Counted from the first letter of the stretch, positions 6,379-36,723 are shown. The stretch: DNA of 64,000 nt from an uncultured Alphaproteobacteria bacterium (GCA_934254585.1 CAKQLF010000001.1:245250-309249); one strand, 5' to 3'. Translations and numbers: made by a program. The notes: generated from the sequence alone by a model not told the origin.

Positions 6379-8292
6379 ATGCATAGCGTTCATACACTGA
6401 TTCTGGATTTGACTTTAATTACAATTTATGCGGCCATTGTTACTCTTTTGTTCAAAAAGCTGAAGCAACCGACAGTTTTAGGATATATTTTAGCCGGTAT
6501 TTTGGCCGGTCCGTATTTTGACTTTTTGCCAACTGTTAAAGATAGTGAGAATCTGGTGTTGTGGGCGGATATCGGAGTTATTTTTCTGTTGTTCGGTTTG
6601 GGGTTGGAATTTAGTTTCAAAAAGATGCTTAATGTAGGAAAAGCGGCAATGATTACCGCCAACGCCAATATATTATTTATGCTGTTTTTGGGCTATAATA
6701 CGGGGCTGCTCTTAGGTTGGAGCACAATGGACAGTTTCTTTTTAGGCAGTATGATTTCAATGTCATCAACCACGATTATTATTAAAGCTTTTGATGATTT
6801 GAATATTAAAAAGCAGCGATTTACGGATTTGGTTTTCGGCGTTTTGGTGGTCGAAGATTTGGTGGGAATCTTGTTGTTGGTGTTGCTGCCTACCATCGCG
6901 CTGGGTTCAACCATAGACGGACAAGCTTTGTTGCTGAGTACCGGAAAATTAATTCTGTTTTTGGTTTTGTGCTTTGTGACCGGTATTTATCTGGTTCCGA
7001 CATTTTTGAAAAAAATAGAAAGATTTTTGAATGATGAACAATTGTTGTTAGTTATGATTGCTTTGTGTTTTGGTATGGTTTGGTTGGCAAATTATTCCGG
7101 ATTTTCATCGGCCTTAGGTGCTTTTATTATGGGGTCTATTTTGGCAGAAACGCCATTGGTGGAACGAATTGAAAAAACATTAAAGCCTTTGAAAGACTTT
7201 TTTGGCGCGGTATTTTTTGTTTCTGTCGGTATGATGGTTAATCCGGCGATGTTTTTGGAATATGCTTTGCCGATAGTTGTGATAACTTTTATTGTGATGG
7301 CGGGGAAAATTGCATTTTCCTGCTTTGGATTTATTGTATCGGGACAACCGTTAAAAACCGCGGTATTAGGCGCGTTTTCGTTGGCGCAGGTCGGTGAATT
7401 TGCTTTTATTATCGCCAGTTTGGGTATGAGTCTGGGGGTTTTGCATAATCAGGTCTATCCGATTATTGTGGCAGTTTCGGTGATTACAACATTTTTCACG
7501 CCTATGATGATAAAATTTGCCGAACCGATGTTTATGATGATTAAGAGATATCTACCAGAAAAATGGCAGACATTTTTGGCTCAGCACACGACCGGACAAA
7601 AGGAAACAAAAAGCGAAGAACGTTTGTGGAATATGTTGTTTAAAAATTATCTGTCGCGGCTGATTTTATTTATAATCATAAATTTTGCGGTTATAGGACT
7701 ATCCAATTACATTATTGTGCCGTTTATACATCGTTATTTGCCGAATATGGCGGCGCGTGCGGTTGTAACTTTGGTAACATTATTATTAATGTCGCCGTTT
7801 TTGAAAGCCTTGATCGGTTGGGAAACAATATTACCGGTGGTTTTTGCGGAAAAAATACGTCCTTTATTTACATTTTTCCAAAAATATTTGCATATAAAAT
7901 TGAGTGATAACAAAATGGTGCAAAAATTTAAGGATACTCTGAACACCTGTGAAAACTCGGAAAATATTAAAAACTTGTTTGTTTCCAACAATCAGGTGGC
8001 CGCGGTTTATTATAAATTGTGGAAAGCTAAAAAAGCCAATCGTTTGCCTTTGTTGTTTTTGACCAGCTTCCGAATGTTGATTGTCTGCTTTTTTATTATG
8101 ACTGTTGTGCATCAGTTTTTAACCGAAAATACCAAAGTTATTTTGGGGTTGGTGATAATTTCTTTGGTGATGCTGACACAGTCGCGTTGGCTGTTTGAGC
8201 AATATATGAAAATTGAAAAACAATTTTTAGAAAATCTGAACGGAGCGGAAAAGAAAAATGTTTCCGACGAGGCTGAGGCTAAAAAAGAATAG
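6379..8292 (+). CDS. Cation:proton antiporter (CPA/Kef-NhaP type) with extra C-terminal membrane domain
   Basis: 637 aa polytopic protein. The N-terminus LGYILAGILAGPYF is typical of Na+/H+ exchanger family proteins. Confidence 0.6.
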   Translation: MHSVHTLILDLTLITIYAAIVTLLFKKLKQPTVLGYILAGILAGPYFDFLPTVKDSENLVLWADIGVIFLLFGLGLEFSFKKMLNVGKAAMITANANILFMLFLGYNTGLLLGWSTMDSFFLGSMISMSSTTIIIKAFDDLNIKKQRFTDLVFGVLVVEDLVGILLLVLLPTIALGSTIDGQALLLSTGKLILFLVLCFVTGIYLVPTFLKKIERFLNDEQLLLVMIALCFGMVWLANYSGFSSALGAFIMGSILAETPLVERIEKTLKPLKDFFGAVFFVSVGMMVNPAMFLEYALPIVVITFIVMAGKIAFSCFGFIVSGQPLKTAVLGAFSLAQVGEFAFIIASLGMSLGVLHNQVYPIIVAVSVITTFFTPMMIKFAEPMFMMIKRYLPEKWQTFLAQHTTGQKETKSEERLWNMLFKNYLSRLILFIIINFAVIGLSNYIIVPFIHRYLPNMAARAVVTLVTLLLMSPFLKALIGWETILPVVFAEKIRPLFTFFQKYLHIKLSDNKMVQKFKDTLNTCENSENIKNLFVSNNQVAAVYYKLWKAKKANRLPLLFLTSFRMLIVCFFIMTVVHQFLTENTKVILGLVIISLVMLTQSRWLFEQYMKIEKQFLENLNGAEKKNVSDEAEAKKE

Positions 8293-8331
8293 TCGTTTTT
8301 TGTGAAATCAGCCATAAAAACAAAGATAAGT

Positions 8332-10014
8332 TTATTTAGGAAGTTTTTGCCAATCAACTACATAAAGATAGGAGTTTGGGTAGTTCTTTTTAATCAGCCA
8401 TTCAGGATAATTTCCGCATTTCATAATCTGGCCATACAGTTTGTCACAATTCTTTTCCGGTTCTTTGTAGTAGTCGGAATCCATATTTTGCGGAATATAA
8501 ATACTACCGACTTTATGCTTGCGGATTAATTTTATAACTTTGTTCATATCAGAGGAGAAGAGAATTTGGTGGTTATCTAAAATTCCTTCGACATTGCGGT
8601 GATAAGGCGAGGCAATAACCGGCTTTTCGGTGTACCATATAACGTACGGAGCAATAAACACATCAGTGACCACGGCTCCCGATGGTAACAGGTTGGAATC
8701 CAAATTAATCTGTGTCGGAGTTTGCGGTTTAATATCTTCTATTTTGTTGGAAATTAAGGTATTTAGGGCAAAGGAGATAAAATCAATATTGTATAGAAGA
8801 AAAATTGCCACCAGAAAACTCAGATTTTTCCATTTGGTTTGATTCAGTTTTAAGGCCATAAGAAAAGCCGAAAACAATGCCGCTGAGGCTAAAAAACGCA
8901 TAGCATAAATCTGCAGGCAGGTATATAGCGCGAGATTCACTGTTAAATAAATTGTGAACAAAACCGATTGTTTTGAGAGCAGTTTCGCGGCGCAAATCAG
9001 GCCAATTAAGGGATAGGCAAGATAGTATATGTTGCCGCCGCTGTTGAGTTCGCTTATGCGTGAAGTAAAGGCTGTTTGCAGTGTTTTATCAAGCGGCGAT
9101 GACAATAAGCCGCCAAAGTAGGTCAGGGCAATGAGTAAAATTGCCGACAAAATCAGCAGGGTAGTTTGTTTTAATTTGCTTTTTAGAAAGTTTGATAAAT
9201 AAAAACTCAGGTTAACCCAAACGGCAATTAAAACATATAACAAAGAAAGTCGGCCGTTGTCGAAATATAAATATCCTTGATATGGAGGGTTGATTAAATA
9301 ATATATGGACGTAAAACAGACGTAGTAACCGGTGATTTTGACAATTGAGGACAGTTTGTTCTTTTGTAATAAATAACCAAGATAAAAAGAGCCTAAAATT
9401 CCAAGATATAAAAATATTCCCTCAGCTGAAACCCAAAGTGATGTGGCCGCGAACATTGCCGTAAATAAAAGGTGTTTTTCGCGCTTGTTTTCACTGAAAC
9501 ATCTGATTTGCCAAATAGTACCGGCCATCAGAAAAATTAAAAGCGAATGATGGTCCGGTCTATCAGCCAAAAAACTTTGCATAAAATGAATCTGGGCAAA
9601 TAAAATGACAAAAAATGCTATTCGCGAGCGAAAATTTAATAAATTTTTCACACCGAGCCAACAAACCAAAAACGTGGTAATCAATAAAAAAGGATTAAAT
9701 AACAATCCACCCGCAAAAGCCGCCTCTTTAAGTGGATAAAACGGCAAAAACGGCAGTATTAACAAGCTCATTAAAATATCCGGAAGCTTGGTCCAGTGGC
9801 TAATTTCACCAAACGGGTAGTTCGACCACATAAAACGATGTTCAAAAATACTGGGATTCTGCATAAAGTCGATTGTTCGTAAAACGTGAAAATAGTTGTC
9901 GGTATCAATGTAGGTTCCATTGTTGGTCAGAATTTGCTGTGCTGACCAATAGACAATTATAAAAATGTAGACAAGCGGTTCTAACCAATCGTAAAGATGA
10001 AACTTTTTAATCAT
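8332..10014 (-). CDS. Polytopic membrane protein, putative GT-C-fold glycosyltransferase (PMT/ArnT-like)
   Basis: 560 aa with more than 10 TM helices. DxD (YIDTDNY) in the first predicted extracytoplasmic loop and a C-terminal soluble domain. Start overlaps the stop of the upstream ArsR gene. Confidence 0.35.
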   Translation of the reverse strand: MIKKFHLYDWLEPLVYIFIIVYWSAQQILTNNGTYIDTDNYFHVLRTIDFMQNPSIFEHRFMWSNYPFGEISHWTKLPDILMSLLILPFLPFYPLKEAAFAGGLLFNPFLLITTFLVCWLGVKNLLNFRSRIAFFVILFAQIHFMQSFLADRPDHHSLLIFLMAGTIWQIRCFSENKREKHLLFTAMFAATSLWVSAEGIFLYLGILGSFYLGYLLQKNKLSSIVKITGYYVCFTSIYYLINPPYQGYLYFDNGRLSLLYVLIAVWVNLSFYLSNFLKSKLKQTTLLILSAILLIALTYFGGLLSSPLDKTLQTAFTSRISELNSGGNIYYLAYPLIGLICAAKLLSKQSVLFTIYLTVNLALYTCLQIYAMRFLASAALFSAFLMALKLNQTKWKNLSFLVAIFLLYNIDFISFALNTLISNKIEDIKPQTPTQINLDSNLLPSGAVVTDVFIAPYVIWYTEKPVIASPYHRNVEGILDNHQILFSSDMNKVIKLIRKHKVGSIYIPQNMDSDYYKEPEKNCDKLYGQIMKCGNYPEWLIKKNYPNSYLYVVDWQKLPK

Positions 10015-10289
10015 TAACTGAGTTTTCCTATGTTTTTATAGCGTTTATGGATACACTGTAATGACGTTTTGTGCACGCCTTTGGTTATGTTATAATAAAT
10101 AAAACGTCCATTACGGCGTTGAGTTTTAACCAGACCGGCATCACGCAGTTTTTGAAGATTTTGTGAAACAGAGTTTTCACCATAGATGTTAAGAAATTCT
10201 AAAATTCGCAAGCGCAAAGGGTGGGCAATAGAGCTTATTCCTTTTACGGCTTGTTTCATTAGGTCTAATGGCAGCTGTGTTTCTATCAT
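10014..10289 (-). CDS. ArsR/SmtB-family HTH transcriptional regulator
   Basis: 91 aa. HPLRLRILEFL helix-turn-helix signature of the ArsR family. Confidence 0.65.
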   Translation of the reverse strand: MIETQLPLDLMKQAVKGISSIAHPLRLRILEFLNIYGENSVSQNLQKLRDAGLVKTQRRNGRFIYYNITKGVHKTSLQCIHKRYKNIGKLS

Positions 10290-22355: not shown

Positions 22356-22430
22356 GGTCCCATCGTCTAATGGTTAGGACATCACCCTTTCACGGTGGCA
22401 ATATGGGTTCGAGTCCCGTTGGGATCACCA
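22356..22430 (+). tRNA. tRNA-Glu (anticodon UUC)
   Basis: 75-nt cloverleaf. Acceptor GGTCCCA/TGGGATC, anticodon loop CTTTCAC, T-loop GGTTCGAGTCC, encoded CCA. The overlapping ORF 22395..22805 is spurious. Confidence 0.85.
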
Positions 22431-22543
22431 ATACAAACGGCAGGCAGTAAAAAGCCTGCTTTTTCTTTTATTTCCAAGTACTTATGCGAGTTCGAATCTT
22501 TGTTTTTTGAAAACTGCGATTTTGGGAAGTTTTTCCGAACTCG
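22424..22543. repeat. Direct repeat copy 0 (tRNA 3' end plus flank; att-like), tRNA-proximal
   Basis: atcaccaatacaaacggcagg...ctttatttccaag...cgagttcgaa...tttgaaaactgcgattttggg...ccgaactcg. Contains a terminator hairpin (22436-22463) and a cgagttcg/cgaactcg inverted repeat. Confidence 0.7.
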
Positions 22544-24398: not shown

Positions 24399-24749
24399 TT
24401 AGTATTCCTCTGCCAACATAATTGTCATAACTCTGTTGGTTATATTTGGATTGCTTGGATTCTCTGATAAGTATTGATAATTCTTGTCATAGTAATCTAT
24501 TTTGAAGTAAATTGTCTCGCCGTTATAATCAAAACTTCCGAAGTCATGTTCGCCATGAGGATCGTTAGCTTTAGTAAAATGATTAAACTGTCTGACTTCT
24601 GATAAGATTTTTGCAATATCATCTTGTGATTTAGCATTTATACCAGCAGTTAACATTACTCTTCCACCGGTAAAGGTTTGTCGGAAGTTGTCATTTAAGG
24701 TTTTAACATCTGTCATAACACACCTCTTAGGCAGACATTTCAGAAGCAA
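24399..24749 (-). CDS. DUF3768-family protein (plasmid/ICE-associated)
   Basis: Motifs NDNFRQTFTGGRVMLTAGI and DPHGEHDFGSFDYNGETIYFKIDYYD match the DUF3768 family seen on alphaproteobacterial plasmids. Probable start at the internal MTDV. Confidence 0.55.
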   Translation of the reverse strand: MLLKCLPKRCVMTDVKTLNDNFRQTFTGGRVMLTAGINAKSQDDIAKILSEVRQFNHFTKANDPHGEHDFGSFDYNGETIYFKIDYYDKNYQYLSENPSNPNITNRVMTIMLAEEY

Positions 24750-24984
24750 GAAACATTTTGAATTTTCTCAAAGCCTGACGAACAGAGGTATGGCTTCTTT
24801 TGCCATAGCTTGATTTTTCACTGGCTGTTTCATATTGAGGCAGGATAGAAGAAATGTTTTCAACTAGATAAGCAAGTGAAAATTTCTCTTTTCTACAAAG
24901 CCCTTCTATCCGCCCATGATAATCCAAAGCAGTTGTTGGTTTATAGTTTTGCTCCAAGAGCCAGTTTTCAAATTGTTTCAACAT
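24727..24984 (-). pseudogene. Possible truncated tyrosine-recombinase N-terminal (SAM-like core-binding) domain remnant
   Basis: 85 aa; F..WL...Y.PTT...Y...I and a C-terminal ALRKFKMFL pattern like integrase N-termini. No catalytic domain follows. Confidence 0.25.
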
Positions 24985-25287: not shown

Positions 25288-26397
25288 TTAATCATTTTCA
25301 TAATCAATTTCTTCAAAACGCAAATTTGTATCATCAATATAATATGTGACATACTTAATCTTGCAAATATAAGTTTCATTAAATTTCTTTAAGGCTTCAA
25401 TACTTTTTAGGTATCTTTTTGTTTTCCTGTTTGTTTTTTTAACAATAATTGTAGGCTCTATTATATCTGGAATCGGCTGAAAATATTGTTTAATCCAACG
25501 TAAATATCTTCCGATTTGCTCTGTTATCTCGGGATAAATAGTTGTTGATTTCAATTCCATAGGTATTAATATTCTTTTATTAGTTTCTGCATTTGTAGCC
25601 ATTAACATAATATCAATCCGCCGCATACCAACGCCACACATTACTTCATTACCTAACCACTCCATTCTGCTATTATTTAAAAAGATTTCCTTCAACTCTG
25701 AATCAGCATCAATAGACTGAGTTATATATGTTTGCAAAAAAGCTTCATAAGCGTAACTGGTATATATCAATTTGCGTTTCACATTGATAGGGTGTGAAAA
25801 TTCTAAGTTATACTGGCTTCGCACACCCTCTATTATGGTTTTACTGTTTTGATCATATGAAAATTGCGAAAAAGCAAGAGGTATATTATCATTTTTAGAG
25901 CTAATCATATCAATTAATCGTTTTGACTCAGCTGGAGTTATCATTGTATTACCCCTATTACCATCTAGCTTTCTATAAATCAACGACCATAAAATATCAT
26001 TAGGTTTTTCAACTCCATCTAAATTATCCAAAGCTTCCCATTCAGTTACTCCTTTGGCGAAAACTATATCAGGCTCTAATAAAACACGAAAAGTAAGTTT
26101 TTTAGACAATTCTGGTGTTGCTTGGGATTTGGGATCAATAAAGCATCTATCTTTTGCTTGAAATACGCCATAAAAATGACCTTTACCCAATTCTCCAGTA
26201 CAATAGAAAATAATTTTATCTCCTTTGCGTATTCGCGCAGAATCCGCCATCATACCAACCAAATTTTGGGCAACCTTTTGATTTTCCGCTGTATCATTAA
26301 ATTCTACATCTAAATCTCTAGCTCCTGTGCCAGCAAACATATACTTTAAATGTAACGGGAAAGTTTTTTCATTTACAATAAAAACATGTGTGGTCAT
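25288..26397 (-). CDS. Putative restriction endonuclease (C-terminal PD-(D/E)xK-like motif) with N-terminal PUA/EVE-like barrel
   Basis: 369 aa, last gene of the MTase operon. RIDIML...IPMELK fits D...ExK. N-terminal GDKIIFY...GHFYGVFQ resembles PUA-like/EVE folds. Not recognisably DpnII/MboI-like. Confidence 0.4.
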   Translation of the reverse strand: MTTHVFIVNEKTFPLHLKYMFAGTGARDLDVEFNDTAENQKVAQNLVGMMADSARIRKGDKIIFYCTGELGKGHFYGVFQAKDRCFIDPKSQATPELSKKLTFRVLLEPDIVFAKGVTEWEALDNLDGVEKPNDILWSLIYRKLDGNRGNTMITPAESKRLIDMISSKNDNIPLAFSQFSYDQNSKTIIEGVRSQYNLEFSHPINVKRKLIYTSYAYEAFLQTYITQSIDADSELKEIFLNNSRMEWLGNEVMCGVGMRRIDIMLMATNAETNKRILIPMELKSTTIYPEITEQIGRYLRWIKQYFQPIPDIIEPTIIVKKTNRKTKRYLKSIEALKKFNETYICKIKYVTYYIDDTNLRFEEIDYEND

Positions 26398-26408
26398 AGT
26401 CTATATGC

Positions 26409-27209
26409 TCATTTCCTAAATAAAAATATATACTCGTGCTTAAACAAATACAAACCATTAGATAATGCTCTATACCGCCATAAAGCTTGCTGATTTTGTT
26501 TACCTTTAGTTGTGTCAAAATTTTTAACAATTATTGATTTAAGTTTCAGTTTTTCTCTCTGTGCTGCTTGCATTGCGTAAAAACCTAATGGAACAATTTC
26601 ACCATTAGCATACTTATCACCAATGACAATTACAAGGTATCTCCCTTTTGCTAAAACCTCTACACTTTTCTTTATTATTAGCTGAAACCTCTCAATAAAA
26701 TCTACCAATGTTTTGGAATTACTAAGGTTATCCTCATCTTGTCCAAATTTTATAATATCCCAATAAGGAGGATGCAAGATAACGAGCTGCACCTCTTTAA
26801 GATTATGATTATTTAATTCTTGCATATAGTTAATCTTTAAACTATCGCCACATACAAGAGAGGCTTCTGCTTTACAACCTTCATCTAAAAATCTTGCAGC
26901 ATTATCAAGTGCTTGTTGAGTTTGAAGACATGTATCTTGATTTATTTCAAAACCAAGAGCATTACGATTAAGTCGCCTTGCTTCAATTAAGGTTGTTCCT
27001 CCTCCTGCAAATGGATCTAAAACCCAATCCCCAGCTTTTGTATATCTCATAATAAACTGGTAAGGAATCTGAGGAACAAAATTTCCCCAAAAACCATTTT
27101 TATGTCCATGCTCATTATCTCTTTTATCAATAAGCCATAATGAATCAGTCCAGATATCTGTTAGATTTTTCCAATTATGTAAATCAAGCTCATTTATCTT
27201 ATTCATCAA
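26409..27209 (-). CDS. DNA N6-adenine/N4-cytosine methyltransferase (N6_N4_Mtase family), second MTase of the locus
   Basis: Motif I DPFAGGGTT and motif IV HPPY. Its start overlaps the Dam-like MTase stop by 4 nt. Confidence 0.7.
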   Translation of the reverse strand: MMNKINELDLHNWKNLTDIWTDSLWLIDKRDNEHGHKNGFWGNFVPQIPYQFIMRYTKAGDWVLDPFAGGGTTLIEARRLNRNALGFEINQDTCLQTQQALDNAARFLDEGCKAEASLVCGDSLKINYMQELNNHNLKEVQLVILHPPYWDIIKFGQDEDNLSNSKTLVDFIERFQLIIKKSVEVLAKGRYLVIVIGDKYANGEIVPLGFYAMQAAQREKLKLKSIIVKNFDTTKGKQNQQALWRYRALSNGLYLFKHEYIFLFRK

Positions 27210-28195
27210 TTTTTCTTCAGTATATGTAAATACTCAATAGTTTTATCAGCTAAATAACTCCTATTAGCATCAGCTTTAAAGCGTTGATAATCTTTTGTTG
27301 CTAAGGAATATTCACCATATTTGTTCATTGTAGATTTTATATCATCAACAGACATCAAACCTTCATTATTATAACTTAAAAAAATATATTTAAATTTGGC
27401 ATTTTTTATCAAATCATCAAAACTATCTAAAACTTTATCTCTTTTACAATATAATGAACGACTATAATCTCTGAGCCCTGTTTTACCTTTAGGCTGAAAT
27501 TTATCATACAAAGCTATTGTATTAAGTAAATGATAATTGGCTCCATATTGTCGTTCATTATACGGAGGATCCAGATACAAAATATCACCTTGAATATGTT
27601 TAATAAGTTGATTGGCATCCTCGCAATATACTTGGTGGTCATGGTCATTTATCTGATATAAAGCAGGCTCCAAATTTAATGATTTTTGAGCAGATTTCTT
27701 TAATTTTTTCAAGAATGCACCATATACAGATGCCGTATTTGCAACTCTATCTGCGCTTTCCAATAATGATGCAAGTAAAAAGTAATATTGATTATCTGAA
27801 ATTTTGGCTGTATCTTTCCATACTTGTATTTTATTTCTTATTGCATCAATTTTTTTGCCATTTTCATCAGAAAAATATTGCCGCCCAGAACCACTTCCTA
27901 AACAATAATTATTAAAGATAAAACCTTCTACACCTTCAAGGCTCATCAAATCAGATATTAACTTCTGGTAATCCATAGCCAAATGATTGCCTATATAGTT
28001 ACGATTTAATATATAGCTATATCGTTCAATATCATTAGAAATTATCTGTTTTGTTTTTAATTTGAAATAACGACCAACGATACCTGTTCCTGCAAATAAA
28101 TCACAAAAAACACATGATTTAATATCATTTACGACACGAGATATATTATCATCTAAAAAAGAAAGTAATTTATATTTTGATCCGATATAGTTCAT
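27206..28195 (-). CDS. Dam-family (D12 class, alpha) N6-adenine DNA methyltransferase
   Basis: MNYIGSKYKLL (Dam N-terminal), FAGTG motif I and LDPPY motif IV. Arrangement is like DpnM/MboIA. Confidence 0.8.
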   Translation of the reverse strand: MNYIGSKYKLLSFLDDNISRVVNDIKSCVFCDLFAGTGIVGRYFKLKTKQIISNDIERYSYILNRNYIGNHLAMDYQKLISDLMSLEGVEGFIFNNYCLGSGSGRQYFSDENGKKIDAIRNKIQVWKDTAKISDNQYYFLLASLLESADRVANTASVYGAFLKKLKKSAQKSLNLEPALYQINDHDHQVYCEDANQLIKHIQGDILYLDPPYNERQYGANYHLLNTIALYDKFQPKGKTGLRDYSRSLYCKRDKVLDSFDDLIKNAKFKYIFLSYNNEGLMSVDDIKSTMNKYGEYSLATKDYQRFKADANRSYLADKTIEYLHILKKN

Positions 28196-28258
28196 TGTTT
28201 ACCTTAATTTAAAATTCGATTTAATTTACATATAACGCATAAAAAAATCATTTGTAAA

Positions 28259-28897
28259 TCAAATTTCTCCTTTTCGAGCTTTTTTAATCACTTCTTTTCT
28301 GTATTCTACGGGATCATATTGATAGCATCCTTCACATCCGTAGTCATGCAACGATTTTCCACCTTTATAATAAGCCATTGGATTTCCGTCTAAGTTACGA
28401 GCATCCCAACGCTCTCCAGTTTCCATGCATTTTTTACAAATTTGCCTTTTGGCATCATTTGCAGCTTTTGTAAGAGGCTGAAAGTCATCAATTGTTTGGG
28501 TGCTTAAATCCGAAACGCGAAAATTGTTCTTTCTACCATCTTTGTGATCAATTTCAATTTTGATATTTTCAGAATTACCCCTAATTCCAAGCATTACGCA
28601 GTTTTTATCTTTATAATATTCTTTTATATCTGAACGAATTGTTTGATTAAATGACGCATCAGTATTAAGACCGATTGTTCTAACGGCATCAATAGAATTC
28701 CCCGACGTTTGAGTTTTATCAAATTCCAGCTTATACCTTTTAGCCAAAGTAGACTCTTTACGACACCAACTTCCTCCATTGCCAAGTTTTAATTCCCTGT
28801 ATTCTCCAACGAATTCTGCAACAGAAACCCAGCGGCTATATCCCTGTTCATTTGGTGATGCCAATTCTAAAAATAGTTCAGTTTTTGTTTTTTTCAT
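28259..28897 (-). CDS. Putative HNH/zinc-finger nuclease (candidate restriction or nicking endonuclease)
   Basis: 212 aa. EIDHKDGRKNN (HNH-like D-H...N-N) plus CxxC...CxxC pairs (ICKKC, GCEGC). First gene of the apparent R-M operon. Confidence 0.35.
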   Translation of the reverse strand: MKKTKTELFLELASPNEQGYSRWVSVAEFVGEYRELKLGNGGSWCRKESTLAKRYKLEFDKTQTSGNSIDAVRTIGLNTDASFNQTIRSDIKEYYKDKNCVMLGIRGNSENIKIEIDHKDGRKNNFRVSDLSTQTIDDFQPLTKAANDAKRQICKKCMETGERWDARNLDGNPMAYYKGGKSLHDYGCEGCYQYDPVEYRKEVIKKARKGEI

Positions 28898-29420
28898 AAA
28901 ATGACTCCTTTATTGAAAAGCTTATGTAAATAAAAACAAAAAAACAAGAAATCTTATTTTGTTATCTGCAACTTTTATCGTTTCAACCTTTAACTTGGCA
29001 ATGTCAAAGGTTACAAAATTTCATTTTTAATAAAATTTTTCAAATAATCTCAAAAAACTTTAGTAGAAATTCGCAAGCTTCATATTCTATAAAATATGAC
29101 AAATGCGTATAATCAACTCAAAAATGAGTTATCAATTCTCTATCCCGATGTTACGGATATTGAATTAAAAGAAATGGCAAGCAATCTGATTGATTTTTAT
29201 ACAACGGCTGTAAAAGCCGTTTTAGAAGATGATACAAAAGAATTTGTTACTGATGACAAAAACTCTTCTTCATAACCTTATTTATTTTGTAAATTAGGTT
29301 AATTGTTTGAAAAATCAGCAAAATATTAGCAATAAAGTCGTCAGAAACAGAAAATAACCGCTTACATTCCCAAAATAACGCGACATAATATTATTATGTA
29401 AAAACAAAGGAGTAATGAAT

Positions 29421-31004
29421 ATGGCTAAGAAATACAGATATGCTAAAGCTGCACCATGCGTTCAGGCTGTCATTTTTGCACGCGTATCTACCAAGGAACA
29501 AGAACCAGGGGGTTCTCTAAAGGCTCAGAAAGAAGCAATGGAAGATTATTGTAACAAAAAGGGACTTCCTATTGTTCAGAAATATAAAGCGGTTGAAAGT
29601 TCCACCAATGGCAAACGTACAAAATTCAATGAAATGTTAGACTTTGTAAAAAAGCAGAAACGCAAAACCGCGATTGTTGTCCATTGTATTGACCGTTTTC
29701 AAAGACGCTTCAATGAATGTGTGGAAGTTGAAGAAATATTATTAGATGACAAAACTGACCTGCATTTTTGCAAAGAAAGGTTAATTCTCACTAAAAATAG
29801 TCCGTCTTCTGATATTATGCGTTGGGATATGGGCATTTTATCCGGCAAAATGTATGTGGCAAATCTGCGAGATAATGTTAACAGAGGTATGAATTATAAC
29901 TGGTCGATTGGAAAATATCAGACAAAGGCTCCGGTTGGGTATTTGAATATTAACAAAGACATTATTGTTGATTCAGAACGTGCACCTTTAGTTAAAAAGA
30001 TGTTTGAGATGTATGCGACCGGACAATATTCCGTAAAACGCTTGCAAGAATTTGCCTCGGAAATGAATTTATGTTCTTCTCATTCTAAAACAAATAAACC
30101 ATTAGGACGAGAAACCATATATGCGATGTTAAAAAATCCGTTTTATTATGGTGAAATGGTAATCCGTGGTGAAATTATGCCACATGCTTATGAACCTCTT
30201 ATTTCAAAATCATTATATGATAAAGTTCAAGAAGTGCGTTCTGGTGGTAAAATACATACAAAAATGCGAGAATATGCCGGAATTCCTTTTGTGTTTCGCG
30301 GATTGATAAAATGTGCGGAATGTGACGGCACCATCTCATCAGAACAGCATTTTAAGAAAAGTGGCAGAAAATATACTTATTTGCGTTGTACACACTCAAA
30401 CGGTTGTTGTCATCAAGGTCTGGTTAGCGAAAACCTTTTATTACAACAACTTGATGATGAAGTTTTTAGTAAACTAAGACTTAGCAAGAATATTTTAGAG
30501 CCTCTGAAAAAATGCGTGCAGAAAAAATTGATTGAAGAATCCGAAGCAAATACCATTGTAAAACGCAAGATCTCCGTGGAATTAAACAATCTTGAAGCTA
30601 AAGAGAGACGGGTTAAGGATTCATTTTTTGACGGAGACATAACCAGAGAGGAATGGCAGGAAGAAAAAGCTATTATTGCCACCAAGAGGGAAGAATTACA
30701 ACGGACAGCTAAAAAATATGCCGATATTAGCAAAGATATTCAAGTAACTGTTAATGAAATTTTAGATATTGCGGCAACTGTTTCCGATATTATGAAAAAA
30801 GCTGATTCTACTCAGCAAAATAAATTGTTAAGTCTTATGCTCTCAGAATGTTATCTTGACGGTCAGAGACTAATTTATACGTTGAGAAAACCTTTTGACA
30901 AGCTGATTAACCTCAAAAATGCCAGTACCTGGTTTGATTTTGATAAATCAGACATCAAGGAATACAAAAACAGGACAGATAAAGTGGAGAGGTATAAGAA
31001 TTGA
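29421..31004 (+). CDS. Large serine recombinase (resolvase catalytic domain, recombinase domain, zinc ribbon, coiled coil)
   Basis: AVIFARVSTKEQE catalytic-serine motif. Cys-rich zinc ribbon (CAECDG...CTHSNGCC) and a C-terminal coiled coil. Opposite strand to the rest of the island. Start at 29421 has an aaggag RBS. Confidence 0.8.
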   Translation: MAKKYRYAKAAPCVQAVIFARVSTKEQEPGGSLKAQKEAMEDYCNKKGLPIVQKYKAVESSTNGKRTKFNEMLDFVKKQKRKTAIVVHCIDRFQRRFNECVEVEEILLDDKTDLHFCKERLILTKNSPSSDIMRWDMGILSGKMYVANLRDNVNRGMNYNWSIGKYQTKAPVGYLNINKDIIVDSERAPLVKKMFEMYATGQYSVKRLQEFASEMNLCSSHSKTNKPLGRETIYAMLKNPFYYGEMVIRGEIMPHAYEPLISKSLYDKVQEVRSGGKIHTKMREYAGIPFVFRGLIKCAECDGTISSEQHFKKSGRKYTYLRCTHSNGCCHQGLVSENLLLQQLDDEVFSKLRLSKNILEPLKKCVQKKLIEESEANTIVKRKISVELNNLEAKERRVKDSFFDGDITREEWQEEKAIIATKREELQRTAKKYADISKDIQVTVNEILDIAATVSDIMKKADSTQQNKLLSLMLSECYLDGQRLIYTLRKPFDKLINLKNASTWFDFDKSDIKEYKNRTDKVERYKN

Positions 31005-31101: not shown

Positions 31102-32475
31102 TTAGTTTTCAATTAGATATGAAGAAATCACGCGTATCCAAGATGACAAATACAAGATTTCAATACCTAATTTTTCTTCTAATGTATCTTTAGCTTGTTG
31201 TAATTGCTTCATGATGTCATTAATATTATGCTCTTTTATGAAGTTATATTCTTTTTCTTTATTATATAAATAATGTCTCAAGCACAGTTCTTTGGCTTCA
31301 GTTGTAGGATATGACATCATTACACTATACTCTTGTCCATTTTTACTTTTTCGTATATTGGTCACAGTATTTATAATGCCAAATTCTTGAATATCGCTTT
31401 CAGGGTCATTTTTTATTATTTCTTTACACTGAGGACAATCACAAACTTTTTCAAAATATATACTTTTGCTATTAAGCCATCCTTCATCTAATAACAGCTG
31501 AATTATATTTCTAAAATGAAAGCGTTTGTGAGCTATAGGTAAATAAAATTTAGAAATAGGGACGCCTCCTCCTACGGGGAAAACACTTCTAGATTCTCCA
31601 TATTCCATACCGTGACAACAAGCCTGCAACAATCCCAAATTAATAAGTATTAGTGAAAAATAACTGCCGTATAATTGTGAAACTGGAATGTTTTTTTCTT
31701 TAAATTTTACTAACAAGTATAAATAATTGTTTAGTAAAACATCTCCAGCATCTTTTTCATCAAACGCATCAATCCACAATAAAATTTCACAGGGATTAAC
31801 TTTTGAGTATTCATCAACTAAAAGGTTAAGCTTGTCCTTATCCAACAAAATGCTTGAATTAATAACAAGTTGTGCAGAAATAGAAGGATGATAAGTTTTA
31901 GACAATTCAATCGCTTTAGTATTAATATGTAACCAGTGATTGAAATTATTATCAGATAAATAAAAATAAGGAGCTATTAAACAGCAAGGAGCTACGCATA
32001 AACTGTTTTCATCATTTCCTAAAATATACTCTATGTATTCTTTATATTCATTTTTTTCTTCTAATACTTCTTTTTTTATAGTATTTTGCTGAAATTCAAT
32101 AACTTTTTGACATAGTTCTTTTAAAAAGGTGTCATTATCATCGAAGTCTGTTAACTCAATTGACCGCTTTTTACATGAAATTATATCTTTTAATGTGTCA
32201 CCGTAAAAGCTGAGAAGCTTTTCAATAGATTTTTTCAAATTACCATCAGATCCAATCAAACCTTGATAGTATTGGAATGCATACGTTTGAGGGTCAATTA
32301 TGAAATCTTTTTTACATAATTCATTGCTTATAAATTTGGAAATAGAATTAGTACAATGTGCAAAGATATTTGCATTTAGTATTAAAACATCATATGAATC
32401 ATTAAAACTTGAAACATATTTTTTTTCTGCATTGGTACCAAAGCGTAATAAATGTGTTCCTTTAATCATACCCAA
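31102..32475 (-). CDS. Cys-rich protein with tRNA-guanine transglycosylase (TGT/DpdA)-like motifs; 4th gene of candidate defence operon
   Basis: 457 aa. LNANIFAH (compare TGT LGNTFHL), DPQTYAFQ (compare DSGGFQ), IDAFDE, VGGGVP, a CDCPQC zinc knuckle (compare E. coli Tgt CDCYTC) and a downstream RHYL. Assignment is by motif only. Confidence 0.3.
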   Translation of the reverse strand: MGMIKGTHLLRFGTNAEKKYVSSFNDSYDVLILNANIFAHCTNSISKFISNELCKKDFIIDPQTYAFQYYQGLIGSDGNLKKSIEKLLSFYGDTLKDIISCKKRSIELTDFDDNDTFLKELCQKVIEFQQNTIKKEVLEEKNEYKEYIEYILGNDENSLCVAPCCLIAPYFYLSDNNFNHWLHINTKAIELSKTYHPSISAQLVINSSILLDKDKLNLLVDEYSKVNPCEILLWIDAFDEKDAGDVLLNNYLYLLVKFKEKNIPVSQLYGSYFSLILINLGLLQACCHGMEYGESRSVFPVGGGVPISKFYLPIAHKRFHFRNIIQLLLDEGWLNSKSIYFEKVCDCPQCKEIIKNDPESDIQEFGIINTVTNIRKSKNGQEYSVMMSYPTTEAKELCLRHYLYNKEKEYNFIKEHNINDIMKQLQQAKDTLEEKLGIEILYLSSWIRVISSYLIEN

Positions 32476-32885
32476 ACTCCATTGATTCTGTTTTTAAAAG
32501 CTTCATTTAACCAAATTTTTCCAACCTTCCATACTTTTCTATTATGTTTTGCAGGGTAAATGGTTTCTATTAATTTGTCACTATCCTTATCAAAGAAAAC
32601 AAGACCAACATCAGTTTTTTCCATTGCTTTTGATAATTTTTCGGGTATTTTTTTCTTAGGTTTAGGGATACATATATATACTTCATTTGTGCCTAAAAAA
32701 TGACTCGATGCTTGCTCTATGGCTCGTTTCCAATTATCAATTTTAAATTCAATAGCAATTAATTGGTTTTTTTTAAGGTAAACAAGATCTATAGACTGTT
32801 GCATAAAAGGAACCTCCGTTACAACTTGAATTCCTTTTTTTCTTAAATAATCTTGAACTTTATTTACCATCTCAATTTCGTACAT
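32466..32885 (-). CDS. Small PD-(D/E)xK-like nuclease-fold protein; 3rd gene of operon
   Basis: 139 aa. TEVPF...IDLVYL...IAIEFK gives an E-P...D...ExK pattern like restriction-endonuclease/Hjc-like folds. Confidence 0.35.
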   Translation of the reverse strand: MYEIEMVNKVQDYLRKKGIQVVTEVPFMQQSIDLVYLKKNQLIAIEFKIDNWKRAIEQASSHFLGTNEVYICIPKPKKKIPEKLSKAMEKTDVGLVFFDKDSDKLIETIYPAKHNRKVWKVGKIWLNEAFKNRINGVWV

Positions 32886-32895
32886 AATCCAGTCC

Positions 32896-33423
32896 TTATA
32901 TTATGAAATCTGCTTGTCTTTTTATTTCAGTAGATAAATGCCTAAATCCCATATATGTACCCCATATTCTACAAATGCAGTATAGTAAATAAAGAAAAAT
33001 TATAATTATTAACCCATTAAAGATATCTAAATATTTTTCTTGCGCAAAGACTTTTCCATATTTACTGCATAAGAGCCAAGCATTTTTTATAGCTGCAGTA
33101 CCAAAAATTAAGATAGCGGAAACTATTAACCTTGAAGTGTATTTTGCATATTTATTGATATGTTTCTTTAAATTTATTTTATTCTCAAAAGCTACAGACA
33201 TTTGCTTGATGAATAAAGAGAAGGATGTGCTCATACTATCGTCATATACTAGATTATTGTGTATTTTATTTTCTATTTTTTCAATAAATTCGGCAAGAAG
33301 CGAAGTTTTCGTCAATAAAAGTGAATTTAAAATTTGATTAGCTTTATCATCAAATTTAGTAAATATAGGGAAAATAATTCCCAGTAGAACACCTGCAACT
33401 GCTAAAATATCCTCAAATCCCAT
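32896..33423 (-). CDS. Small multi-pass membrane protein (candidate toxin/effector); 2nd gene of operon
   Basis: 175 aa with 3-4 hydrophobic helices. Sits 3 nt downstream of the Panacea-domain gene. Confidence 0.4.
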   Translation of the reverse strand: MGFEDILAVAGVLLGIIFPIFTKFDDKANQILNSLLLTKTSLLAEFIEKIENKIHNNLVYDDSMSTSFSLFIKQMSVAFENKINLKKHINKYAKYTSRLIVSAILIFGTAAIKNAWLLCSKYGKVFAQEKYLDIFNGLIIIIFLYLLYCICRIWGTYMGFRHLSTEIKRQADFII

Positions 33424-33426
33424 TAT

Positions 33427-34014
33427 TTAATAACCTTTCAATACTTTTTCTTTTATTTTTGATTTCTCAGTAAATTCCGGGTATTTAGTATATACATATC
33501 GCAAAATATCACGCAACTTTGCCTTATTGTATCTGGCTTTAAATGCTGATAAAATTTCTTTTTGATTATTAGACAAGCTTTCATATTTATTCTTTTGCTG
33601 AATGAACTGAACTCCTTTGTCACTGATTTCAAAGCGTTCTAATGCATATTCAACAGGTTTTACATCTAATTCTTTTTCCGCATAATCATTAAATTCTGAA
33701 ATTTCTTCATAAGTTAAAATATCACTACTATTTGAATATGAAGTTGAGATAAAATCTATATTTTTTAAGAAATCAATATCTTTAAATGCTTTAATAGACA
33801 TTGGACCAAAATTCCAAGCGGTAAAGAAAAACAAATCATCACTATATTCCAGTGTATCTTCAGTAAATTTTTTTAAAATTTCTTTTTCAAAAATAAAAAG
33901 GAGTTTTGTTAATTTTGTCCGACCTTCTATAGCTTCGCGGAATTCTTTTGTATAACCGGGAGAATACAAAAGCAACATGATTATATCAACAGATGTTAAT
34001 TTTATTTTGGACAT
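33427..34014 (-). CDS. Panacea-domain (DUF4065/GepA-like) protein, candidate antitoxin; 1st gene of operon
   Basis: 195 aa. TKLTKLLFIF...FTAWNFGPMSIKAF matches the Panacea hallmark (T/N)KLQKLLY...AWxxGPV. Confidence 0.45.
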   Translation of the reverse strand: MSKIKLTSVDIIMLLLYSPGYTKEFREAIEGRTKLTKLLFIFEKEILKKFTEDTLEYSDDLFFFTAWNFGPMSIKAFKDIDFLKNIDFISTSYSNSSDILTYEEISEFNDYAEKELDVKPVEYALERFEISDKGVQFIQQKNKYESLSNNQKEILSAFKARYNKAKLRDILRYVYTKYPEFTEKSKIKEKVLKGY

Positions 34015-34123
34015 TGTAAAACCTTTACGAACTACTCTAATATATTATAATACAATTTATTCCTATCAAGTTAAGAAATAATAAATTAATTTGCACAGCT
34101 TTTAATCTTTTTAGCTCGGAAAC

Positions 34124-34245
34124 TGTGAGGTAAGCATCACCAATACAAACGGCAGGCATAAAAACCTGCCGTTTTGCTTTATTTTCCAAGCCTTTCAGCG
34201 AGTTCGAATGTTGTAAATTTGAAAATTGCGTTTTCGGTTTTTTGT
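34124..34245. repeat. Direct repeat copy 1 (att-like, tRNA 3' end plus terminator hairpin)
   Basis: gtgaggtaagcatcaccaatacaaacggcaggcataaaaacctgccgtttt...ctttattttccaagcctttcagcgagttcgaa...tttgaaaattgcgttttcgg. Near-identical to copies 0 and 2. Confidence 0.7.
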
Positions 34246-35080: not shown

Positions 35081-35124
35081 AATTTTATGTAAAAAAAAAG
35101 AAGTTTCAGCTTGTGAAACATAAA

Positions 35125-35249
35125 TTAAGCATCACCAATACAAACGGCAGGTATAAAAAACTGCCGTTTTTCTTTATTTTCCAAGCCTTTCAGCGAGTTC
35201 GAAAGTCGTATTTTCGAAAACCGCTTTTTGGGAAGTTTTTACGAACTCG
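35125..35249. repeat. Direct repeat copy 2 (att-like)
   Basis: ttaagcatcaccaatacaaacggcaggtataaaaaactgccgttttt ctttattttccaagcctttcagcgagttcgaaag...ttttgggaagtttttacgaactcg. Overlaps the last ~22 codons of the 35190..35843 gene. Confidence 0.7.
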
Positions 35250-35843: not shown

Positions 35844-35925
35844 AGTAGTCTCCTAGTGATAATTATGATGCCTTTTGAACATATTATTTATTCATTAATA
35901 TATCATTAAACAGTAGCTCGTAATT

Positions 35926-35979
35926 TGTGAGTTAAGCATCACCAATACAAGCGGCAGGTATAAAAACCTGCCGTTTTTT
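35926..35979. repeat. Direct repeat copy 3 (truncated, att-like), followed by a strong GC hairpin 35992-36013
   Basis: tgtgagttaagcatcaccaatacaagcggcaggtataaaaacctgccgtttttt, then aaaaccccgcg ttaga cgcgggg ttt. Confidence 0.65.
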
Positions 35980-36114
35980 GTATAAAGAAAACCCCGCGTT
36001 AGACGCGGGGTTTAGTGTAGTTTATAGCGGTGAGTTTGACAAAGTGCTTCTAGTAATTACTTTAACACAAACTTTTTAGAAACTTAAAGCATAACCCCAC
36101 AAAATGCTACAGAC

Positions 36115-36723
36115 TCAAAATTTACTTTTTATATAGCGATGTATTGTTATCCAACTGCAGTCCATCAATCTGGCCATTTCGGCTTTTGATATGCCTTTAT
36201 TTATCAGTTCGACAATTTTATTATGTTTTTTCTCAAGTTTTTGATATGAAAGTCCTCGTGGTCGTCCAAGCCGTTTTCCCTCATCTTTTAGGCGTTTTAG
36301 CGAGTTTTTTGTTCGCTCGGAAATCAACTGGCGTTCCAACTCTCCGACTAATGAAAAGGCAAAGGCTAAAATTTTACTTTGAATATCAGCACCTAAGCGG
36401 TAATTTTCTTTCAATGTCCAGATTTGGCAACCTTTTTCCAAACAATGTTGCAAAATTCCCATAACTTCAAGCAAATTTCTTCCTAAACGGCTTAATTCGG
36501 TTGCAATTAAAATATCTCCTTTTTTAAGCTTTTTCAATAATTTACCAAGTTTTCGTTCGGTGAGCAATTTGCGTGAAGAAATTGTTTCTGAAATCCATTT
36601 ATCAATAGGGATATTGTGTTGTTGCGTATAAGTTAGAATTTCGTGTTGTTGGTTTTGGGTGTTTTGATGGTCGGTGCTAACCCGAATATAAGCGTAGTAC
36701 ATAAAAAAAGTCCTTATAGTCAT
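36115..36723 (-). CDS. Small serine recombinase (resolvase/invertase family) with C-terminal HTH
   Basis: YAYIRVSTDHQNTQNQ catalytic-serine motif, ELSRLGRN and C-terminal HTH (ISKAEMARLMDCSWITIHRYI). Probable start at MYYAY (36702). Confidence 0.8.
   Translation of the reverse strand: MTIRTFFMYYAYIRVSTDHQNTQNQQHEILTYTQQHNIPIDKWISETISSRKLLTERKLGKLLKKLKKGDILIATELSRLGRNLLEVMGILQHCLEKGCQIWTLKENYRLGADIQSKILAFAFSLVGELERQLISERTKNSLKRLKDEGKRLGRPRGLSYQKLEKKHNKIVELINKGISKAEMARLMDCSWITIHRYIKSKF

Follow-up and report, generated by a model that had tools for sequence, protein, structure and literature searches.

A mobile four-gene restriction-modification cassette combines an NlaIII-like pair with a widespread EVE/YTH-like nuclease family encoded beside amino-methylases

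We describe here a four-gene restriction-modification (R-M) cassette at positions 25,288 to 28,897 of a 64,000-nucleotide stretch of DNA (hereafter the window) from an uncultured Alphaproteobacteria bacterium (GCA_934254585.1, CAKQLF010000001.1:245250-309249). Judged by its sequence, one half of the cassette (genes R1 and M1) is a textbook R-M pair, and R2, encoded in the other half next to the methylase gene M2, belongs to a widespread, uncharacterised family of EVE-PD-(D/E)xK proteins with the genomic context of a methylase-dependent nuclease. We propose, giving it an even chance of being correct, that the four genes form a single mobile CATG-directed Type II R-M module that holds two methylases alongside two endonucleases unrelated to each other, with the EVE-like domain serving to probe the target base. 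The genes, and the predicted parts of R2, are as follows.

28259..28897, minus strand: R1 gene, 212 amino acids, IceA1/NlaIII-family His-Me (HNH-type) restriction endonuclease with two CxxC zinc motifs
27206..28195, minus strand: M1 gene, 329 amino acids, D12-class (alpha) N6-adenine DNA methyltransferase of the NlaIII/HpyIM type, probable site CATG
26409..27209, minus strand: M2 gene, 266 amino acids, N6_N4-type amino-methyltransferase with permuted motif order
25288..26397, minus strand: R2 gene, 369 amino acids, EVE/YTH-like reader domain fused to a NucS-like PD-(D/E)xK nuclease
25894..26397, minus strand: R2 residues 1-168, EVE/YTH-like pseudobarrel, with WSLIYRKL and RGNTMIT as candidate wedge and pocket
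25288..25662, minus strand: R2 residues 246-369, PD-(D/E)xK nuclease domain
25645-25647, 25612-25614, 25555-25557 and 25549-25551, minus strand: predicted catalytic residues E251, D262, E281 and K283 of R2

All four open reading frames (ORFs) lie head-to-tail on the minus strand and are translationally coupled. The TGA stop codon of M1 overlaps the start of M2 (TTG/ATG; junction AAT-TGA-TG), an overlap already remarked on in the initial annotation of this DNA, and 11 nt separate the M2 stop from the ATG of the R2 gene. A promoter/terminator scan of the operon found sites no more frequently than in shuffled sequence. The initial description, an R-M-type locus encoding methylases of two separate classes, was borne out, with M1 matching Pfam MethyltransfD12 (PF02086, E=6.8e-52) and PADLOC MTase_II (PDLC03257, E=2e-131), and M2 matching Pfam N6_N4_Mtase (PF01555, E=8.5e-26) and PADLOC MTase_II (PDLC03351, E=8e-105).

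Taken alone, R2 gives sub-threshold Pfam matches only, to EVE (E=0.037, residues 55-92) and to HSDR_N_2 (E=0.011, residues 252-333). The segment aligned to EVE (PF01878) is the stretch GDKIIFY...GHFYGVF, and its score of 14.5 bits against a cut-off of 23 marks R2 as a divergent member of that family; among 34 relatives, 17 match EVE at E<=0.1, the best of them at E=1.6e-5. An AlphaFold2 model of R2, built from 34 relatives, was confident, with a predicted local distance difference test (pLDDT) score of 86.7 and a predicted template modelling (pTM) score of 0.86. Foldseek matched the first ~170 residues of this model to the EVE protein PH1033 (1wmm; E=3.4e-5, template modelling score 0.69) and to the EVE proteins Rpa0253 and Atu2648 (2gbs, 1zce), and the N-terminus was also matched to the YTH domains of YTHDF1/2/3 (E~1e-3), which bind N6-methyladenine (m6A); the match probability for EVE/YTH was 0.96-1.0. 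Matches of the C-terminus were to the nuclease domains of XisH, PaqCI, Card1 and Can2. A Pfam NucS_C match is present in 25/34 members of the R2 family (best E=4.2e-6), and in a PDB search with the family profile NucS (2vld, E=0.005) and PH1033 were the sole meaningful matches, both weak; a search of PDB chains with the single R2 sequence gave nothing useful. The model, the Foldseek matches and the NucS/PH1033 profile matches together confirm the predicted architecture of R2 as an EVE/YTH-like reader fold joined to a NucS-like PD-(D/E)xK nuclease, in agreement with the PUA/EVE-like N-domain and PD-(D/E)xK domain read from the sequence at the outset. The other identity that had been considered for this protein, a DpnII/MboI-family endonuclease, was not recovered, as Pfam gave no DpnII/MboI-family match for either R2 or R1.

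The D...ExK motif seen earlier in R2 corresponds to D262...E281-L-K283, preceded by E251, and this E-D-ExK set is invariant in 90/90 R2 relatives. Two further motifs, WSLIYRKL and RGNTMIT, are invariant in 89-90 of the 90 relatives and are among the most conserved parts of the protein. They are likely candidates for DNA-facing wedge and pocket elements, by analogy with VcaM4I, whose pocket is formed by P24, W82 and Y130 and whose wedge is Q128 (PMC7897488). Set against the VcaM4I pocket by eye, the candidate pocket residues of R2 are F21-x-G-T-G, F75 and R-G-N-T-M-I-T, all of them invariant. A search with the N-terminal domain alone indicated that it occurs almost only in the R2 architecture.

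The R2 family is large, comprising 1,949 protein-database clusters at 90% identity, with members in 215 of the species-representative genomes scanned. Pairwise identity has a minimum of 41% and a median of 58% and rises to 99%, over a range that takes in Bacteroidota, Campylobacterota, Spirochaetota, Chloroflexota, Planctomycetota, candidate phyla radiation (CPR) bacteria and DPANN-type archaea. The annotations carried by these proteins are 'hypothetical', 'predicted RNA-binding protein' and 'DUF91 domain-containing'. Plasmid and phage collections contained no R2 homologue, a fold search of BFVD returned generic PD-(D/E)xK matches only, and PADLOC has no model for R2.

The strongest regularity of the family lies in its genomic neighbourhood. 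We compared the four proteins of the window with all ORFs of 89 loci, of which 77 were non-redundant and 49 were flanked on each side by at least 2.2 kb of sequence; these 49 well-flanked loci underlie the counts of neighbours and gene orders that follow. In all 49 an amino-methylase is directly adjacent to the R2-family nuclease, the context typical of a nuclease dependent on protective methylation. The methylase sets comprise N6_N4 only (18 loci), N6_N4 with D12 (17), N6_N4 with D12 and ICEA (11) and D12 only (3). With m standing for the N6_N4 methylase, R for the EVE-nuclease, D for D12 and I for ICEA, the gene orders are mR (18 loci), mRD (17), mIRD (5), ImRD (3), RD (3), IDmR, which is the type found in the window (2), and mRID (1). 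The arrangement is not due to chance, as these genes are found together again in dozens of genomes unrelated to one another. In an earlier survey of 350 PUA-nuclease fusions, fewer than 6% had a DNA methylase within 3 kb, a rarity from which modification dependence was argued (PMC6765204), so that a reader-nuclease sharing an operon with methylases is indeed as unusual as initially supposed.

The N6_N4 methylase lies upstream of the nuclease in 46/49 loci, and the gene junctions are mostly of -4 to +4 nt. Where ICEA is lacking, D12 follows the nuclease at a junction of -4 to +14 nt in 17 loci. ICEA is found only where D12 is present (D12 in 11/11 loci with ICEA vs 20/38 of the others, p=0.004), in four gene orders; it belongs to at least three divergent lineages placed at differing points of the operon, and in 5-7 loci it separates the N6_N4 methylase from the nuclease, again with coupled junctions. 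The D12-only pairs, such as that of Helicobacter mesocricetorum, are flanked by housekeeping genes, lack any further methylase in the vicinity and have their catalytic residues all intact, and their R2 proteins are 57-59% identical to those from N6_N4-only loci. Mirror-tree correlations among the four proteins were moderate (r 0.53-0.83) and confounded by redundancy. An integrase-bearing element of Sulfurimonas marina (CP041165, L091:4201-9312) encodes an N6_N4 methylase and an EVE-nuclease, then two ORFs of 207 and 417 amino acids, and after these a helix-turn-helix (HTH) controller-like gene and D12, and the genome of this species encodes a second EVE-nuclease paralogue (P0279).

R1 matches Pfam ICEA (PF05315) over its full length (E=1.6e-100, protein positions 4-209). 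In 15 homologues, a very divergent clade included, the residues E115, D117, H118 and N147 (ExDH...N) are invariant together with the cysteines C154, C157, C188 and C191, which form two CxxC pairs, and these features uphold the HNH/zinc-finger-like character first ascribed to the 212-residue protein; PADLOC has no model for ICEA. M1 scores 24.6 bits against the Dam-family model TIGR00571, far under its cut-off of 114.85, and a homologue of M1 at 77% identity is named 'modification methylase nlaIII' by the Joint Genome Institute, our comparison with M.NlaIII being made via that name only. In Helicobacter pylori, the nuclease gene iceA1 precedes the methylase gene hpyIM, and the site of NlaIII and HpyI is CATG. 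Because of the ICEA nuclease, the NlaIII-named homologue of M1 and the R-then-M order, R1 and M1 are, in all probability, an ordinary NlaIII/HpyI-like pair, a CATG-type system rather than a GATC-type one. The initial assignment of this half to a Dam-like, GATC-specific DpnII/MboI system was therefore rejected, and the upstream position of the nuclease gene, which had been regarded as non-canonical, is the canonical arrangement of iceA1-hpyIM. The cassette resembles the Type IIP NlaIII/HpyI systems in its full-length ICEA nuclease, its adjacent D12 methylase, its R-then-M order and the depletion of CATG in host DNA. It differs in that those systems consist of two genes, whereas here a methylase of a second class and an unrelated nuclease share the operon, and in that ICEA is absent, or placed elsewhere in the operon, in many relatives of this cassette.

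M2 departs from its Pfam family in two respects. Its S-adenosylmethionine-binding motif F-x-G-x-G-TT comes ahead of the catalytic motif, whereas the beta-class order of N6_N4_Mtase has the two the other way round, and its catalytic tetrapeptide, invariant in 84 homologues, is HPPY and not D/N/SPPY. The names given at NCBI to its orthologues vary between 'TRM11 family methyltransferase', 'DNA methyltransferase' and 'DNA adenine methylase'. Across the loci the N6_N4 methylase comes in two forms, a short one of ~265 amino acids and a long one of ~385 amino acids with an additional conserved N-terminal domain of ~120 amino acids, for which Pfam gave no match. D12 accompanies the short form in 25/30 loci and the long form in 1/9 (p=1.6e-4), as if the extension replaced the contribution of D12. 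The long form is encoded, for example, at L012:584-1738 and L018:4847-6001, and in 19 other loci, and its extension reads …LNISSNGDT.KVNK..LLEDLNQI..AQTIERAKYYI.RLKKSL….

With D12 followed by an overlapping N6_N4 methylase of ~266 amino acids and then a nuclease, the gene order and overlaps of the cassette do mirror the M1-M2-R layout of the GATC systems DpnII, LlaDCHI and MboI, as first pointed out. By analogy, this suggests a division of labour between the methylases comparable to that in DpnII cassettes. The enzymes and the probable site differ, however: the D12 methylase is not of the Dam family, R2 has no DpnII/MboI match and a different domain architecture, and M2 is permuted and carries HPPY.

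In the module that we propose, M1 would, by homology, make C(m6A)TG, and R1 would cut unmethylated CATG. M2 and R2, as their conserved linkage suggests, would be an ancient, translationally coupled core pair that exists also alone. Gene identities, folds, catalytic motifs and linkage are what the analysis shows; for M2 and R2 we infer a CATG site, and for R2 base flipping and methyl-sensitivity over methyl-dependence; R2 most likely cuts unmodified DNA. Its EVE/YTH-like domain would bind the recognition site and flip the target base into the conserved pocket, and its NucS-like PD-(D/E)xK domain would be licensed to cut only if the flipped base is unmethylated. Either methylase alone would protect the host, and hence both would mark one site. 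Such sharing is suggested because either class can be the sole partner of the nuclease, because the R2 family is tight enough for isospecificity, and because D12 is of the NlaIII type; by sequence, the R2 family looks like one specificity throughout. R1, in turn, would depend specifically on M1. D12, N6_N4 and the nuclease would work like DpnM, DpnA and DpnB, and M2 may serve as a back-up methylase or as one for single-strand or hemimethylated DNA. Two mechanistically unrelated nucleases acting on one mark would harden the barrier, and stacking of nucleases under one methyl mark fits better than chance adjacency because the gene orders are interleaved and coupled and because ICEA was recruited independently several times. 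A further and more tentative proposal, which we would sooner expect to fail than to hold, is that the EVE/YTH-like domain acts as a methyl-mark sensor 'in reverse', flipping the site adenine (or cytosine), reading the mark of its own methylases, and switching the nuclease off on self DNA or steering it to the unmarked strand.

Several observations speak against the single-module proposal. ICEA never accompanies N6_N4 alone (0/18 loci), as would be expected if M2 did not protect CATG from NlaIII-type cleavage; a methylase encoded at a distant, unlinked position of the genome could serve the D12-only loci; and some M2 orthologues are NCBI-named as members of the TRM11 family, which is RNA methylase-like. 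In the S. marina element D12 stands behind its own HTH controller, two unknown ORFs away from R2, and looks like part of a second system. Moreover, every characterised fusion of a PUA, EVE or SRA domain to a nuclease is modification-dependent, not modification-blocked (PMC6765204, PMC7897488, PMC7641849). The avoidance of sites in host DNA is ambiguous as well. When all 256 tetranucleotides were ranked in the parts of the window beyond the cassette-bearing island (1-22300 and 37400-64000), CATG was the most depleted (12 observed, 119 expected, observed/expected ratio 0.10, z=-11.8). GATC, however, was nearly as depleted (16 observed, 129 expected, ratio 0.12), CTAG stood at 0.21, and no GATC-specific system was identified in the examined part of the window. 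In the flanks of the loci, measured without a baseline set, CATG ratios were 0.45-0.57 across all locus classes, with GATC, CTAG and GGCC depleted too, and in the flanks of N6_N4-only loci GATC was the more consistently depleted of the two sites (median 0.41 vs 0.58 for CATG). The avoidance data therefore do not single out CATG for R2.

Part of this evidence would be explained if two independent Type II systems lay side by side, ICEA with D12 acting on CATG and N6_N4 with the EVE-nuclease acting on another site, possibly GATC, in which case the D12 gene that so frequently comes after the EVE-nuclease would encode a CATG methylase that is a hitch-hiker or a remnant. We consider this explanation less likely than not, though its probability is appreciable. 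N6_N4 and the nuclease are self-sufficient in 18/49 loci, ICEA never occurs without D12, and the separate control of D12 in S. marina, with ORFs intervening, points in the same direction; so do the depletion of GATC, as strong as that of CATG in the window and stronger in N6_N4-only flanks, and the presence of a DpnA structure among the weak PDB matches of M2. Nevertheless, two separate systems are hard to reconcile with the at least three loci in which an intact nuclease, lying between housekeeping genes, has D12 as its sole neighbouring methylase. Nor do they account for the close junction of D12 to the nuclease in 17 loci that lack ICEA, for the insertion of ICEA between N6_N4 and the nuclease in 5-7 loci, or for the anticorrelation between the length class of N6_N4 and the presence of D12.

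A probable counterpart in Campylobacter jejuni would also argue against a second specificity. The 'IceA1 gene cluster' of C. jejuni ST-677/HS:19 (cluster X) contains a methylase ('FixL' or 'sensor protein'), IceA1/NlaIII, two hypothetical proteins and an hpyIM orthologue (PMC4202330, PMC8743553), an outline which, judged from the published gene outline alone, is that of the m-I-R-D order seen here in 5-7 loci. Single-molecule real-time (SMRT) methylomes of its carriers showed RAATTY, C(m6A)TG and one Type I motif only, with no motif for a second methylase and no G(m6A)TC (PMC8743553); if cluster X is homologous, its second methylase would be, by analogy, either CATG-specific or silent. The papers on cluster X describe IceA1/hpyIM and an 'orphan' methylase and recognised no second nuclease (PMC4202330, PMC8743553). 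C. jejuni itself is not among the R2 homologues listed. In Campylobacter ureolyticus, a zinc-ribbon ORF of 73 amino acids (L090:4780-5001) lies between the N6_N4 methylase and the EVE-nuclease and resembles the N-terminus of a divergent ICEA clade (…WHCTKCEL…AQAKT…). This ORF looks like a decayed NlaIII-like nuclease, and it may be the counterpart of a zinc-ribbon hypothetical protein reported in cluster X.

The EVE-nuclease could, alternatively, truly read a modified base, making the locus a Type II/IV hybrid, an explanation to which we give little credence. In one version the nuclease would attack foreign modified DNA in the manner of a Type IV enzyme, the host being shielded by the linked methylases' own mark; in another, host m6A would be read as 'self' or as a strand signal that vetoes or directs the nuclease, for example so that it cuts only the unmethylated strand or partner site. 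The N-terminal domain of R2 does match m6A-binding YTH domains and EVE domains, its putative pocket and wedge motifs are the most conserved part of the protein, and both linked amino-methylases would make a mark of the kind that YTH-like pockets bind. All characterised EVE- and SRA-nuclease fusions are, moreover, modification readers (PMC7897488, PMC6765204), and EVE-PD-(D/E)xK fusions are generally classed as Type IV (PMC7641849). R2 is similar in size to the EVE-HNH and EVE-PD-(D/E)xK enzymes (VcaM4I/TspA15I) and to the SRA-nucleases MspJI and TagI, with which it shares an N-terminal PUA-superfamily reader, a C-terminal nuclease and a conserved candidate pocket and wedge. Those enzymes, however, are modification-dependent and in fewer than 6% of cases linked to a DNA methylase, whereas the R2 family has one or two such neighbours in 49/49 loci. 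The first version leaves this obligatory methylase unexplained, given how rarely modification-dependent PUA-nuclease fusions have methylase neighbours (PMC6765204), and the idea in the initial annotation that the reader nuclease is aimed at foreign modifications is accordingly disfavoured. Furthermore, a nuclease activated by m6A in CATG would be suicidal in the D12-only loci. The second version overlaps with the single-module proposal and is computationally inseparable from simple blocking by the methyl group.

A non-defence role, as a methyl-directed DNA repair or processing module like Dam/MutH or NucS/EndoMS in which the methyl mark guides strand choice, would suit the sequence affinity of the R2 C-terminal domain to NucS/EndoMS and the location of some loci among housekeeping genes, but is highly improbable because of the patchy, cross-domain distribution at 41-60% identity that is typical of horizontally moving R-M genes, the islands with recombinases and integrases, the repeated joining into operons with a bona fide restriction nuclease family, and the absence of the NucS N-terminal domain from R2. 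The comparison with NucS/EndoMS (DUF91) is thus confined to the minimal C-terminal PD-(D/E)xK domain, of which it is the closest sequence relative, whereas the EVE/YTH-like N-terminus of R2 takes the place of the NucS dimerisation/DNA-binding domain, and the methylase linkage and mobile context differ as well.

It is possible, though we would not expect it, that a characterised REBASE relative of R2 and M2, such as FatI, exists; this would fix the site and lower the novelty of the system while leaving the architectural point in place. A literature search on the CATG enzyme FatI found no gene or sequence information. UpaP162 of Ureaplasma (CA^TG) was considered as a relative and rejected, as its partner methylase is predicted to be of the 5-methylcytosine class and it is probably unrelated (PMC6191088).

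The combination of a PUA-superfamily reader with a nuclease is currently read as the signature of a modification-dependent (Type IV) enzyme, and enzyme screens rely on it. The R2 family has this reader-nuclease architecture and yet the genomic signature of a classical methylase-protected enzyme, and neither Pfam thresholds nor PADLOC detect it. If R2 is blocked by methylation, an EVE/YTH fold can serve to check that a mark is missing, and Type II endonucleases would gain a new architecture; were R2 instead to bind the methylated base, it would be part of a new kind of restriction system that reads its own mark. Should the sensor proposal hold, R2 would be the first restriction enzyme with a reader domain to depend on an obligate pairing with the writers of its mark, a Type II/IV hybrid, and the locus a prokaryotic writer-reader-effector module for m6A in DNA. 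In practical terms, the family would offer a new enzyme for CATG (or another site of 4-6 bp), with potentially useful m6A discrimination. It would also account for the 'orphan methylase plus hypothetical genes' that IceA1 clusters contain in Campylobacter and its relatives, and the recurrent combination of two unrelated nucleases with a single methyl mark would provide a testable example of redundancy in defence.

The cassette lies inside a tract of low guanine-cytosine (GC) content spanning 23-37 kb of the window (GC 0.27-0.35 vs ~0.40 around it). This tract starts at a tRNA gene and includes a large serine recombinase gene divergent from the cassette.

22356..22430, plus strand: tRNA-Glu(UUC), found with ARAGORN, integration site of the cassette-bearing island
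29415..31004, plus strand: large serine recombinase with Resolvase, Recombinase and Zn_ribbon_recom domains, mobility gene of the island

Four direct repeats (22397-22525, 34109-34237, 35104-35232 and 35911-36039) carry the tRNA 3' end and about 120 nt beyond it; in each, the final ~10 nt of tRNA-Glu are followed by a hairpin/T-run and then by ~100 nt from downstream. They bound integrated elements of 11.7 kb, containing the cassette and the large serine recombinase, of ~1.0 kb and of ~0.8 kb, so that the cassette lies within a tandem array of elements integrated at the 3' end of tRNA-Glu. Serine recombinases also adjoin the cassette in the relatives L006-L008, and a 99%-identical copy of the cassette is present in a metagenome-assembled genome of a human-gut Alphaproteobacteria bacterium (L010). 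Positions 36115-36723 encode a small resolvase.

Just downstream of the cassette, on the minus strand, are a gene for a DUF3768 protein (24399-24749, E=3e-33) and an overlapping ORF of 85 amino acids (24727-24984). This pair is found beside the cassette in the distant relatives L002, L003 and L008 as well, and may be part of the backbone of the mobile element. The island genes at 31102-34014, also on the minus strand, have little or no annotation. Among them, an ORF of 457 amino acids had no Pfam, NCBIfam or PADLOC match and one of 175 amino acids no Pfam match, while an ORF of 139 amino acids matched REase_MTES_1575 (PD-(D/E)xK-like) and one of 195 amino acids a SocA/Panacea antitoxin-like family, both weakly; these genes may be further defence or toxin-antitoxin cargo. 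The island element family collects methylases: L002, a relative of the island in the window, carries a small phage-type Dam methylase (PF05869) and a large C5-cytosine methylase (L002:6376-6816 and 8198-10178).

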